Source: an uncultured Clostridia bacterium
Lineage (GTDB): Bacteria > Bacillota > Clostridia > TANB77 > CAG-508
Direction: 5' to 3'
NCBI GenBank assembly: GCA_944388755.1
Contig: CALXJY010000002.1
Location: 4,179-68,178, forward strand
DNA: 64,000 bases
Shown: in pieces, positions 19,350-24,350 of the stretch
Layout of the letters: each line of letters begins with the position of its first letter
Position numbering within the stretch: the first letter of the stretch is position 1
Notes under the pieces: model-generated
The model's database searches: none
What the model saw: only the letters and a program-made list of their open reading frames with translations
What the model was told of the DNA's origin: nothing
Translations under genes and position numbers: made by a program

Positions 19350-22300
19350 ATGGCAAATTTATTTGGCAGGATGCTTCCAAAAGATAAGAATAAAAAAAAT
19401 AAAGTTTCAGGAACTGCAAAAACATTTTTAAAAATGATGATACCACATACAGTTGCAGGTGGAATTATATTAGGTACAGTTTTACTTGTTATAATAAGTA
19501 TTTTTGTATATATAAGTGAATATGACTCAGATAAAAACTATAGTAAAAATAATCCAAAGCTATTATATGAACAATTAGGATCAGATGATTTAAATGAACT
19601 TATATGTATTGCAGGAAATGAAGAAGACGGATATTATTTAGCATTTAAAGATGGATATGAGGAAAGATTAAAAGAAATTGTAAAAAAATATGATTCAAGT
19701 GGTAATTATTTCAGTATAGATATTGATCTTTTATCTGATATGATCAAAGCAGAATTGTATACACAGTATCCTGATTTAGGTGGAAAAATAGGAAAAGAGG
19801 CAGATGTAAAACTAGAAGAGCCTTCTCAAGAAGAGGAAGAAGAAAATGAGGAAGAAGAGGAACAAGAAGAGAAGACAGAAAATATAATGGACATACCAGA
19901 AATGTTTCAAAATGATGGTGTAAATGTTACATTTCCAGCACATACTTATGCTTCATTTCCTGGAACAGGTTGTGGACCAGCATGTATAGCAATGATTATG
20001 ACATATTTAACAGGTGAAGAAGTAACATTCCAAGATGTTGCAACATGGTGTGACAATCCTGCATATGCTGGTAAATATTTTAATGGAAGTGGTTCAAATG
20101 GTCCAATATTCGAGGCTTCAGCAGAACATTGGGATGTAGGAGAAGTAACATATACAGACGATCCTGATAAAGTTGTACAGTCACTTCTAGATGGAAAACC
20201 GGTTGTATCTTTACAGACAGGAGGAATTTTTGCAAATGTTCAACATTATATTGTTTTAAGAGGTGTTGATGAAAATGGTAGAATATATGTAAACAATCCA
20301 AATAGAGATACCGCACAAGACGAAAATTATGATATGGCTTCACAAATTGATGCAACAAGTTCAGGTTACTGGATTTATGAAAATGGAACACCTTCTTCAA
20401 AATCATCTGTTCCAAAACTTATTTTAGCAAATGATACAGGAGAAGGACAAGATGGTTTCCAAGGAGCAGTTAGAATTAGGAGAGTAATGCCAAACAAAGG
20501 AATTGGAGAAGTAAAAAATGTAGGTTCAGGAGAATCTTCAACTGTTATAGAAAGTTTAGGAACAAAAGAAAAAATACCTGATGACATAAAAGAGGAATTA
20601 GGAAAACTTAAAGGTACATCATATGATGCATTATCATATTTAACAATACCATATTATAATTTTGATGGAACTGTTTCAAAGGGAAATATGATAGTAAATA
20701 TAAAACTTGCAGATGAGGTATTACTTATTTTCCAAGAATTGTATAATATAAAGTATCCAATTGAGGGCATGAGCATAAATGCAAATTATGAAGAATCAAT
20801 AAAAGCAAATAATACAGCAGGATTTTATAATAATGATTCATTAGTAGATGCAAATGCAGAAGAAGATCAAAAATTACATATAACAGGACAAGCTATAGAT
20901 ATAAATCCTCAAATTAATCCTAATATTATAAGTGATCATGAGTATTTACCTGATAATTCGGAAAAGTATGTAACAGAAAGAAAAGAGCAAGAGGGATGGC
21001 AAGATATAGAGAAAGAGGCATGTATAACAAATGATTCTAGAATTGTTAGTATTTTTGAAAAATATGGTTGGGAATGGAAAGCAAATGGAAGTTATTCAGG
21101 TGATACAGGACATTTTGAAAAAAAAGATTTAAATAATGTTCAAACAATAACAGGCTCAATAACTGATCATAATCCTGATGATGAAGAAACAGATGAAAGT
21201 GAAGATACAGAAAATACTACAAACAATAATACCAATAGTGATTCAGGAAATAATACTACAGATACTGAGTCTGAGGACACAGAAAATGAACAAAAAAGAC
21301 AAGAAGTTAAAGATTATATTGAAGATTATGCATCTATGAGAGGTAAATGGAGTGTATATGCAAAAGCATTAAATTCAGGTGTAGACATAGTAGACTATGA
21401 TAAAGATGCAAAAATGCAATCAGCCAGTGTAATAAAATTATTTGTAATGGCAGCAGTATATGATCAGAGACAAGAAGGTAACAGTAATGCACAAAATATA
21501 AGTGATTCAACAATTAGTAGTATGATAACAGTAAGTGACAATGATGCTACAAACTCAATTATAACACAATTAGGTGGTGGAAGTGAATCTGCAGGTTTAC
21601 AGGTAATTAATCAATATATAAGAGAACATGGATATACAAATACGGAAATTAACAGATTAATGTTACGAGATACTTCAAATGGAGATAACTATACATCTGC
21701 AGTAGATGCAGCAAAGATATTAGAAGAGATATATAATGGAACATGTGTTAGCCAAGCAGCTTCTGATGCAATGTTAGGATTTTTAAAAAATCAGCAACGT
21801 AAAAGTAAAATTCCAGCAGGTGTTCCAGGTAATGTAGAAACAGCAAATAAAACAGGTGAGCTAGACACTGTACAAAATGATGCTGCAATCGTATTTAAAA
21901 ATGGTGCACCATATGTATTAGTTGTAATGTGTTCTAATGTAACAGATACAAACCAAGTTATAAATGATATTGTTGAAATATCAAAAAAGGTTTATGGAGT
22001 AGATTCTGAAACTATTACATCTGATGAAGATGTTAAAACAACAATTAACTCAAAAGTAATTGATCTAAAATACATACCTGAAGAAAAATTTGATGAAATG
22101 ATAGAAAATGATGACCAATCAGTACTTGAGTATTATACACTAGATGGAAATTGGAAACTAATAACTGCAAAATGGAGTTATACTACAACAGATGGGATAA
22201 AACTTTCAAAGAATTCAGCAGTTAACTATATAACAACACTACAAAAATATACAACACCATTTGAATATATGCTAGATTATTATATTGATATGACAGATGA

Positions 22301-24350: not shown

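Follow-up and report, generated by a model that had tools for sequence, protein, structure and literature searches.

Introduction

Wall hydrolases associated with type IV secretion systems (T4SS) form an already known class of enzymes. The common view of them is that of simple conjugation helpers with one to three domains, and those described have two or three (PMC12102498). Pilin genes are said to be absent from the classical Gram-positive T4SS classes, and in Patescibacteria the peptidase and lysozyme genes that adjoin virB4 are essential for epibiotic growth (PMC12102498). Here we describe a 64,000-nucleotide stretch of DNA (hereafter the window; contig CALXJY010000002.1 of assembly GCA_944388755.1, positions 4,179 to 68,178 of the forward strand) from an uncultured bacterium of the Clostridia (TANB77, CAG-508). 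Within a T4SS-like operon, the window encodes a modular wall hydrolase (19350..24350, + strand) that an earlier note, made from the letters of this DNA alone, had singled out as a six-domain peptidoglycan-remodelling protein with a beta-lactamase-like module.

We consider it probable, though well short of certain, that this hydrolase serves as the subunit that breaches the wall for a domesticated, chromosomal T4SS-like machine in small-genome, low-GC, spore-forming gut Clostridia and is, as part of the same proposal, the functional counterpart of VirB1, PrgK, TraG (of pIP501) and CwlT. Through accretion, the hydrolase of this lineage has come to carry six to eight lytic modules, on a scaffold unlike any described family or solved fold. 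In the literature outside subscription journals, we found nothing on the T4SS of this lineage, on PF18895 outside Patescibacteria or on TANB77/CAG-508. Nor did we find there the scaffold, modules of these kinds and in this number (above all the PBP-A-like one with its truncation), a T4SS fixed in the chromosome of this lineage, or an exchange of lytic cassettes between strains that takes along part of a neighbouring gene.

Gene structure and membrane topology

Residues are numbered throughout from the TTG codon at 19314, where the maximal open reading frame (ORF) begins. The frame 19314..24350 (+) is uninterrupted and counts 1678 codons from this TTG, as had been claimed, but the product is likely a protein of 1666 amino acids that starts at the ATG at 19350, given that this codon sits 6 nt downstream of AGAGGTG and that a database protein 99% identical to the window hydrolase (P0001) also has 1666 residues. 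A scan for promoters and terminators was uninformative in this AT-rich DNA (125 promoter-like sites against 134 expected).

The protein was rightly described as membrane-anchored. Hydropathy and flanking charges identify a single N-terminal transmembrane segment (19446..19511, +; aa ~45-66), with eight Lys/Arg residues ahead of it and an acidic stretch behind it. These flanks indicate an N-in/C-out topology that would place about 1,600 residues outside the membrane. Two low-complexity linkers follow, one acidic (19824..19883, +; aa 171-190), at the first of the module insertion sites described below, and one polar and acidic (21177..21296, +; aa 622-661).

We considered whether the ORF could be an assembly chimera, for which the earlier note had proposed a check at 21170-21330 and 22020-22700. 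This was ruled out by independent collinear assemblies. The DNA of the closest genome (L001) aligns across both junctions in a single 11.4-kb piece, and two relatives, P0002 (80% identical) and P0020 (39% identical, encoded on a 1.84-Mb contig), are collinear with the hydrolase over its full length.

Lytic modules

The six lytic domains that had been claimed are all supported. Four of them pass Pfam gathering cutoffs (Peptidase_C39_2, Peptidase_M15_4, Beta-lactamase2 and Hydrolase_2), and family alignments show that catalytic residues are conserved in all six modules.

The Peptidase_C39_2 module (19893..20303, +; aa 194-330) matches its Pfam model with E 2e-14 (54.7 bits, cutoff 24) and keeps the dyad Cys220 and His311 in 19 of 21 sequences. 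It shares 30% identity with the C39_2 domain of a Clostridium botulinum plasmid hydrolase. The second module is a VanY-like zinc peptidase of the Peptidase_M15_4 family (20631..21128, +; aa ~440-605), whose Pfam match covers aa 522-603 (E 2e-9; 38.3 bits, cutoff 25). The zinc ligands of its H-x6-D...H signature, H522, D529 and H600, are invariant in 41/41 sequences, and D597 is found in all but one of them (40/41). The Hydrolase_2 cassette (23409..23744, +; aa 1366-1477) corresponds to the catalytic domain of SleB, with a Pfam match at aa 1393-1477 (E 2e-15; 58 bits, cutoff 27) and with E 3e-8 against the SleB structures 4f55 and 4fet. Glu1387 aligns with the first Glu of the G-E-S-R-G-E motif in both structures, which we take to be the catalytic Glu, and is kept in 5/5 sequences.

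The two remaining assignments rest on family profiles and structure, as Pfam scans of isolated segments (aa 13-195, 340-450, 890-1100, 1085-1215, 1200-1370 and 1500-1678) gave nothing significant. The C-terminal NlpC/P60-like Cys-His peptidase cassette (23841..24347, +; aa ~1510-1678; Cys1566, His1628) gave no Pfam match to PF00877, also as an isolated segment at E<=10, and had only weak matches to other models (ELLD, E 0.0097; RipC, E 0.064). A family profile of aa 1500-1678 searched against PDB sequences had 8er5 and 8idc as its best matches (E 1e-4), and nearly all of the 23 matches listed at E<=10 are NlpC/P60 proteins. Moreover, Cys1566 and His1628 are invariant (21/21 sequences), and P0099 and P0101, two relatives that are 47-50% identical in this region, score above the NLPC_P60 cutoff at the corresponding position.

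The sixth module is a divergent 3D, or MltA-type, double-psi beta-barrel (22566..22913, +; aa 1085-1200) that is hypervariable inside between strains. It is homologous to verified 3D domains and has the double-psi beta-barrel fold. The 3D model (PF06725) gave no match in the whole protein or, at E<=10, in the isolated segment, and a profile of the region found only chance matches among PDB sequences, such as an oestrogen receptor zinc finger that aligned on the CxxC motif. The key residues are C1107-x-x-C1110, H1137 at the first position of the Asp triad, D1160 and D1171. Both D1160 and D1171 are invariant, while the first position is His in 29 of 34 sequences and Asp in two. We conclude that the 3D and NlpC/P60 domains are real despite the lack of a Pfam match in the query itself.

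Serine module

The module between the M15 peptidase and the 3D domain (21297..21995, +; aa 662-894) is a predicted serine DD-peptidase that resembles PBP-A and has the fold of class A beta-lactamases. Its key residues are S705, K708, S741-D-N, R781, M783, D791 and K846-T-G. The best stretch of its Beta-lactamase2 Pfam match is aa 734-872 (E 7e-42). The class A triad that had been reported does occur in canonical order (S705-V-I-K708, S741-D-N743, K846-T-G848), and S705, K708, S741, N743 and K846-T-G are invariant in 55/55 family sequences; position 742 is Asp in 40, Glu in 10 and Asn in 5 of them. The spacing, reported as canonical too, is not. The distance from SxxK to SDN is 36 residues, compared to ~60 in class A enzymes and 62 in PBP-A, whereas that from SDN to KTG (105 residues) is close to the class A value of ~104. 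The commonest spacings among relatives are 35 and 98, so the short first interval is a family-wide trait. About 25 residues are thus deleted between SxxK and SDN. The fold tolerates this deletion: the module model (pLDDT 94.2, pTM 0.92) superposes on class A enzymes with template modelling (TM) scores of 0.82-0.86. The ground for refutation that the earlier note had named, a spacing incompatible with the class A fold, therefore does not apply.

The Omega loop is shortened as well, with its R...D pair 10 residues apart compared to 15 in class A. It reads I-N-R781-x-M783-L784...G-D791-N-Y-T-S, with no Glu at the position of Glu166. R781, M783 and D791 are invariant and Leu784 occurs in 53/55 sequences; the alignment with PBP-A puts a hydrophobic residue at the L158 position. 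A single one of the 55 sequences has Glu in the Leu784 column (window ~21660), which resembles the engineered PBP-A variant L158E that gains some deacylation.

Among solved structures, the best sequence relative is PBP-A (2j7v, E 2e-16), ahead of true class A enzymes. A Foldseek search with the module model also placed PBP-A at the top (TM 0.85, 25% identity), followed by 4EWF and LRA-5, and the PBP-A acyl-enzyme 2j8y is listed among the structure matches. PBP-A acts as a DD-carboxypeptidase and DD-endopeptidase without an Omega-loop Glu, and with a Glu introduced it nevertheless falls short of a natural lactamase by five orders of magnitude (PMC11189452). LRA-5, which has Val166, gives minimal inhibitory concentrations (MICs) equal to those of control strains unless it is mutated (Y69Q/V166E) (PMC12777564). 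On the basis of PBP-A as the closest relative, the missing Omega-loop Glu, a score for the NCBIfam bla_class_A model (NF033103) far below cutoff (65.5 bits against 200) and these published results, the serine module looks like a penicillin-binding DD-peptidase and not a beta-lactamase.

It had been suggested that the module might bind or hydrolyse beta-lactams. Binding is plausible, and the module would be acylated by beta-lactams without turnover. Hydrolysis is unlikely, given Met783/Leu784 at the Glu166 position and the bla_class_A score. We judge very improbable a reading of the gene as a resistance determinant, that is, a class A-like module borne by a mobile element and hydrolysing beta-lactams. 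The invariant SxxK, SDN and KTG motifs, the strong Beta-lactamase2 match and the structural similarity to class A enzymes are all compatible with such a role, but the loss of the Glu166 equivalent, the shortened Omega loop and the deletion ahead of SDN, the low bla_class_A score and the closest matches (PBP-A and the control-level LRA-5; PMC11189452; PMC12777564) speak against it, as does a locus that is chromosomal and syntenic between species. A likely annotation trap is thereby corrected, as 'beta-lactamase' does not denote a mobile resistance gene here. A compact PBP-A-like fold lacking the SxxK-SDN region also bears on the relationship between class A beta-lactamases and DD-peptidases.

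A relative of the PBP-like domain, with 31% identity to aa 701-894, was found in an 800-aa protein annotated as 'peptidoglycan DD-metalloendopeptidase family' on the Gordonia terrae plasmid pPE105 (L038, 8698-11100), where the gene adjoins one of the cutinase family. This protein may represent an independent fusion of the same serine-hydrolase fold into a plasmid-borne envelope-lytic protein.

Scaffold and family architecture

Beyond the enzymes, we identified a conserved non-catalytic scaffold of ~540 residues that the earlier note had overlooked. It consists of an N-domain (19512..19823, +; aa 67-170), a short conserved motif (20409..20543, +; aa 366-410), a core-N subdomain of helices and a long beta-hairpin (22008..22550, +; aa 899-1079), which is the most widely conserved part of the family, and a core-C subdomain with a long beta-hairpin and a helical bundle (22986..23393, +; aa ~1225-1360) that ends at the junction ...Y-S-P-D-D-F. 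The N-domain is present in nearly all relatives, including minimal forms of 849 residues, and matches no known family. The core model (mean pLDDT 77.5) has two hairpins with strands of 23-30 residues. Sequence scans and a structure search of the core found no Pfam, NCBIfam or PDB relative of the scaffold.

By homology, we retrieved 161 proteins at E<=1e-10, of which the 120 listed provide the cassette counts given below. The full-length relatives among these 120, as a group, have 1,666-2,187 residues. By BLAST, aa 40-170, aa 366-410, the M15_4 and PBP-like modules and aa 895-1360 are near-universal, while C39_2 (aa ~190-365; about 28/120), the NlpC-like cassette (about 24/120) and Hydrolase_2 (about 10/120) occur in a minority. 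Non-homologous insertions cluster after aa ~150-170, ~900 and ~1350-1360. An exhaustive search with the core yielded 426 representative clusters at E<=1e-3. Many of their members, with 600-1,400 residues, share only core-N (~899-1079) and core-C (~1260-1360) and carry Amidase_3, Phage_lysozyme2, NLPC_P60, CHAP, glucosaminidase, M15_4 or C39_2 domains. A minimal relative, P0159 (849 aa), comprises a transmembrane segment, the N-domain, core-N, core-C, Phage_lysozyme2 and NLPC_P60, and its gene occupies the same syntenic chromosomal locus.

The module mapping, the clustered insertions and the architecture of P0159 show that the family is a ~540-aa scaffold with lytic modules inserted at four sites. 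These lie after the N-domain, before core-N (M15, PBP-like and sometimes amidase_3), between core-N and core-C (the 3D module) and after core-C. The largest repertoire noted is that of P0015, with eight modules: C39_2, M23, M15_4, PBP-like, Amidase_3 and Phage_lysozyme by Pfam, the C39_2 region also matching C70, plus 3D and NlpC-like regions by BLAST. The view of the six-module enzyme as an unusually complete toolbox therefore holds with respect to described T4SS hydrolases, which have fewer modules, but not within its own family. As a whole, the family constitutes a natural library of modules that cleave peptidoglycan and whose fusion junctions are defined.

The distribution of the Hydrolase_2 cassette bears on the idea that the enzyme serves to cut a thick, cortex-like wall, and on the related possibility that it is a cortex hydrolase of sporulation or germination, to which we give almost no credence. 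The domain itself is of the SleB type, and the sporulation genes SleB, YpeB and GerM lie elsewhere in the window. The cassette is nonetheless restricted to the few relatives counted above and exchanged for lysozyme-type cassettes within species, and it is on this cassette that the cortex idea rests. The protein scores 52.9 bits against the SleB equivalog TIGR02869 (cutoff 236.5) and lacks a PG_binding_1 domain, and its gene is embedded in a T4SS operon. A canonical SleB (PG_binding_1 plus Hydrolase_2; 7627-8328, +) and YpeB (58653-60026, -) are encoded apart from it, which indicates that the organism has its own cortex-lytic pair.

Operon and chromosomal location

The hydrolase is the penultimate gene of a T4SS-like operon (9371..25713, +). 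The operon begins with four tandem, divergent VirB2-like pilins (T4SS_pilin/TrbC; 9371-11789, +), followed on the same strand by PrgI/VirB3 (start 11911), u422, a 422-aa protein annotated as TraC-like on the basis of precomputed Pfam annotation of its homologues (start 12287), a VirB4-type ATPase (start 13506), a 952-aa VirB6-like membrane protein with a fused pilin domain (15488-18346) and u321, a 321-aa protein of no known family (start 18359). Downstream of the hydrolase lies u465 (24373..25713, +; ATG 24373 after AAGGAG), a membrane-anchored protein of 446-465 residues, also of no known family. Reading frames overlap or abut from 11911 onward. PDB sequence searches and Pfam/NCBIfam scans returned nothing significant for the scaffold N-domain, u321, u422 or u465. 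The gene thus lies inside a T4SS operon, in line with the T4SS association that had been noted, and its linkage to VirB4 and VirB6 is conserved.

The association with a mobile element, in contrast, is not supported. A scan of one genome per species recovered 29 loci, all from metagenome-assembled genomes of uncultured gut Clostridia (human, rabbit, chicken and mouse). Among those of sufficient length, most share one gene order, and wherever the downstream flank is present it does not differ, with CoA-activase on the opposite strand followed by GerM, a methyltransferase and RsmI. In one relative, the locus occupies 916-941 kb of a 1.84-Mb contig that has been polished. Identity to the window across loci is 80-99% for VirB4 and 83-98% for the housekeeping CoA-activase; for the hydrolase core it is 31-57%, except in the closest genome (L001, 84%). 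Neither 72,556 plasmids nor 50,697 phage records gave a tblastn match to the hydrolase core. We identified no relaxase, coupling-protein or integrase family among window ORFs of at least 300 aa or in the Pfam-annotated gene tables of loci L031-L037. Based on the shared chromosomal site, a VirB4 as conserved as its housekeeping neighbour and the lack of detected mobility genes in the window, the T4SS-like machine is chromosomally fixed and apparently non-conjugative. A lineage of abundant uncultured gut Clostridia therefore keeps a T4SS-like machine with no detected relaxase at a fixed chromosomal site.

A hairpin with a T-run (11833-11858) lies between the pilin array and prgI, and in L031 an IS200-like Y1 transposase is inserted in the pilin array.

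Cassette exchange between strains

Closely related genomes differ sharply in one hypervariable exchange segment (23381..25429, +), which spans the C-terminal cassettes of the hydrolase and the first ~270-370 residues of u465. The relative P0004 (contig L035) is 87-100%, mostly 100%, identical to the window hydrolase from aa 459 to ~1355 and 12-20% identical thereafter, with Phage_lysozyme2 and NLPC_P60 in place of Hydrolase_2 and the NlpC-like domain. The apparent N-terminal truncation of P0004 is an artefact of a 100-N scaffold gap. The L001 protein is ~100% identical to that of the window over aa 41-600, and 45-77% identical across the 3D region; from aa ~1358 onward it is unrelated, and sequence inspection (not a Pfam scan) indicates a Phage_lysozyme-like module there. 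At the DNA level, the flanks of the segment are 91-99% identical among closely related genomes; the similarity breaks off at window 23340-23381 and resumes at 25126-25429, within u465. Accordingly, between near-identical genomes the first 270-370 residues of u465 are 6-56% identical and its last ~100 residues 86-100%.

The same pattern recurs in an independent species pair (L036/L037), which is 99.4% identical upstream and has breakpoints at hydrolase aa ~1368 and at aa ~295 of the downstream gene. C-terminal replacement was also found in the pairs P0027/P0076 and P0007/P0012, replacement of the 3D region alone in P0027/P0016, and presence or absence of the M15 module in P0015/P0090. In this family, then, a conserved body ends at a sharp junction, beyond which near-identical backgrounds carry C-terminal catalytic cassettes that are unrelated to one another.

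Where near-identical cores differ in their cassettes, they differ in their u465 partners as well. Across 26 loci, cassette identity is correlated with identity of the u465 N-part when core-N and u465 C-part identity are controlled for (partial rank r 0.19, a value reached by 1 of 2000 Mantel permutations). In L033/L010, for example, core-N is 55% identical, the cassette 85% and the u465 N-part 82%. An exception is L012 compared with the window, where the cassettes are 64% and the partners 26% identical. This covariation could be explained by the physical adjacency of the two genes alone. The joint replacement of the outermost modules and part of a neighbouring gene is a pattern typical of molecules that face other organisms.

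We therefore considered whether the T4SS may open the walls of other cells, in predation, epibiosis, DNA acquisition or antagonism. The hydrolase would then be the exchangeable warhead of a contact-dependent weapon or host-cell-opening device, its modules attacking the wall of a touched bacterium, and u465 would be the cognate immunity protein or inhibitor that protects the producer. We regard this as possible but unlikely. Effector/immunity pairs of the bacteria-killing X-T4SS, polymorphic toxins and the essential T4SS of epibiotic Saccharibacteria offer analogues. The wholesale swapping of unrelated cassettes at a fixed junction in 93-100% identical backgrounds would be expected of such a device, as would the pairing of the same cassette and partner ectodomain in diverged backgrounds (L033/L010, and the partial correlation above), although that covariation is open to the linkage explanation and is not absolute (L012/window). 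Similarly, the module repertoire of the family resembles those of endolysins and bacteriocins (M23, CHAP, amidase_3, GDSL esterase, GH3 and lysozymes), but the enzyme is anchored in the membrane of its producer and encoded inside the apparatus operon, and is not a secreted effector. The absence of a detected relaxase and the VirB2-like pilin arrays recall Patescibacteria, in one of which, 'Candidatus S. epibionticum', virB4 is flanked by peptidase and lysozyme genes that are essential (PMC12102498); u465, for its part, matched no known immunity fold or family. If true, the system would be a Gram-positive, apparatus-tethered analogue of effector-immunity systems.

The variation could also be antigenic, or affect a receptor, with the surface protein diversifying under pressure from host IgA or phages while the enzyme still remodels its own wall. 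Variation is found in the 3D module, at the C-terminal end and in the u465 ectodomain, whereas membrane-proximal parts and VirB4 are conserved, and the tandem divergent VirB2-like pilins would fit (PMC12102498). The swapped cassettes, however, are different enzyme folds (Hydrolase_2, Phage_lysozyme, Phage_lysozyme2, glucosaminidase), not just divergent alleles of a single fold, and catalytic residues stay conserved. As immune or phage targeting of this protein is itself conjectural, we consider this explanation decidedly improbable.

Proposed role

We favour the proposal that the hydrolase, anchored beside the T4SS-like machine as one of its subunits, reaches through the thick wall with its enzymes and breaches it. 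The scaffold would dock on the membrane complex, and its long beta-hairpins would hold the enzymes out in the wall. There, glycan strands would be cut by the 3D/MltA-like and SleB-type lytic transglycosylases, and stem peptides and cross-links by the M15 zinc peptidase, the PBP-A-like DD-carboxy/endopeptidase, the NlpC/P60-type endopeptidase and the C39-like Cys peptidase. The combined cuts would open a local hole for the pilus or channel. As had been suggested, the predicted modules plausibly cover both glycan and stem-peptide bonds. The C-terminal pair of glycosidase and peptidase, as well as the 3D module, are exchanged by recombination at fixed junctions, the C-terminal pair jointly with the u465 ectodomain. 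We suggest that u465 is probably a cognate partner, either a regulator/inhibitor or an adaptor.

Several observations weigh against this proposal. All module activities are predicted from homology, and the docking and stalk roles of the scaffold are speculative, as nothing in the core model outside the double-psi beta-barrel matched known folds at its mean pLDDT of 77.5. The 3D module is without the first signature Asp (His1137) and has DFG for DTG, making its activity uncertain. The search for relaxases and coupling proteins was limited to the window and to the tables of a few relatives' loci rather than whole genomes. Lastly, neither the unrelated C-terminal cassettes of near-identical strains nor a need for as many as eight modules is accounted for by purely housekeeping work on the cell's own wall.

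Other genes in the window

Downstream of the operon is an orphan, stand-alone M15_4 gene (25946..26606, +), a paralogue of the M15 module of the hydrolase. It has a 1-nt frame break near 26348, at GCA-A-TGC; skipping one base restores the zinc motif S-x-H-x-x-G-x-A-x-D and the C-terminal D-x-x-H. The break is also found in L001, and in L035 the gene is called as two ORFs, which points to a conserved frameshift (possibly a programmed +1 event) or a shared pseudogene. The rest of the window is chromosomal. It encodes a DinB-like polymerase, an M18 aminopeptidase, SleB, a CoA-enzyme activase, an anti-sigma factor and GerM, along with RsmI, an EPSP-synthase-family enzyme, phosphoglucomutase, DnaX, YpeB and VanW. 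Two ORFs have no Pfam match, one of 727 aa (35580-37763, +) and one of 440 aa (52957-54279, -). The GC content drops to 19.5% at window 54001-56000, compared to ~25-30% elsewhere in the window.

Comparison with known systems

Individual modules differ from their best-studied relatives. PBP-A (Tll2115 of Thermosynechococcus elongatus) shares with the serine module SxxK, SDN, KTG and a hydrophobic residue in place of Glu166. It is, however, a stand-alone, membrane-tethered PBP (penicillin-binding protein), whereas the window module is a compact part of a 1,666-aa multi-enzyme and has lost the ~25 residues between SxxK and SDN, and the longer Omega loop, that PBP-A retains. Compared with the MltA/YuiC 3D lytic transglycosylases, most of the family has His at the position of the first Asp, and the window protein has DFG for DTG. 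The module also has an extra CxxC...CC motif, is inserted between two scaffold subdomains and has no Pfam match on its own.

At the level of the whole protein, polymorphic toxins (Rhs, CdiA, LXG; X-Tfe/X-Tfi of X-T4SS) likewise combine a conserved body, a sharp junction, swapped C-terminal cassettes and a covarying neighbour. Here, in contrast, the cassettes are wall hydrolases on a membrane-anchored apparatus protein, and u465 differs from toxin immunity proteins in its conserved C-terminus and in showing no recognised immunity fold.

The T4SS of Patescibacteria resembles that of the window in being monoderm, MPF-FATA-like and chromosomal, with no relaxase found, with divergent VirB2-like arrays and with lytic enzymes encoded beside virB4 (PMC12102498). 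Those bacteria belong to another phylum (the window is from Bacillota, Clostridia), and a giant modular hydrolase is not described in them.

The closest plasmid VirB4 proteins (41% identical) are those of C. botulinum plasmids. In pINGR16-02E1 and its relatives, the same slot after VirB4 and a pilin-domain VirB6-like protein is occupied by a 682-aa protein with C39_2 and 3D domains (WP_269467655), which supports the interpretation of the window protein as a T4SS wall hydrolase and suggests that C39_2 plus 3D is an old combination. In contrast to the window protein, WP_269467655 is plasmid-borne and has two lytic modules, and BLAST finds no family scaffold in it.

Finally, PrgK (pCF10), TraG (pIP501), CwlT (ICEBs1), TcpG (pCW3) and VirB1 (diderms) are, like the window hydrolase, encoded in T4SS clusters beside VirB4/VirB6-type genes. 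The Gram-positive enzymes are also membrane-anchored or secreted to the wall and likewise join a module that cleaves glycans to a Cys peptidase (NlpC/P60 or CHAP); the CwlT-like pairing of lysozyme and NlpC/P60 is the exact module set of the minimal relative P0159. With six modules, and up to eight in relatives, the window enzyme exceeds the two or three of these hydrolases (PMC12102498), as the earlier note had supposed. Unlike PrgK, TraG, CwlT and TcpG, it adds M15, PBP-A-like, C39_2 and 3D modules and the ~540-aa scaffold, and it belongs to a T4SS that, unlike theirs, is chromosomal and vertically inherited, with no relaxase or coupling protein detected and with modules swapped between strains.

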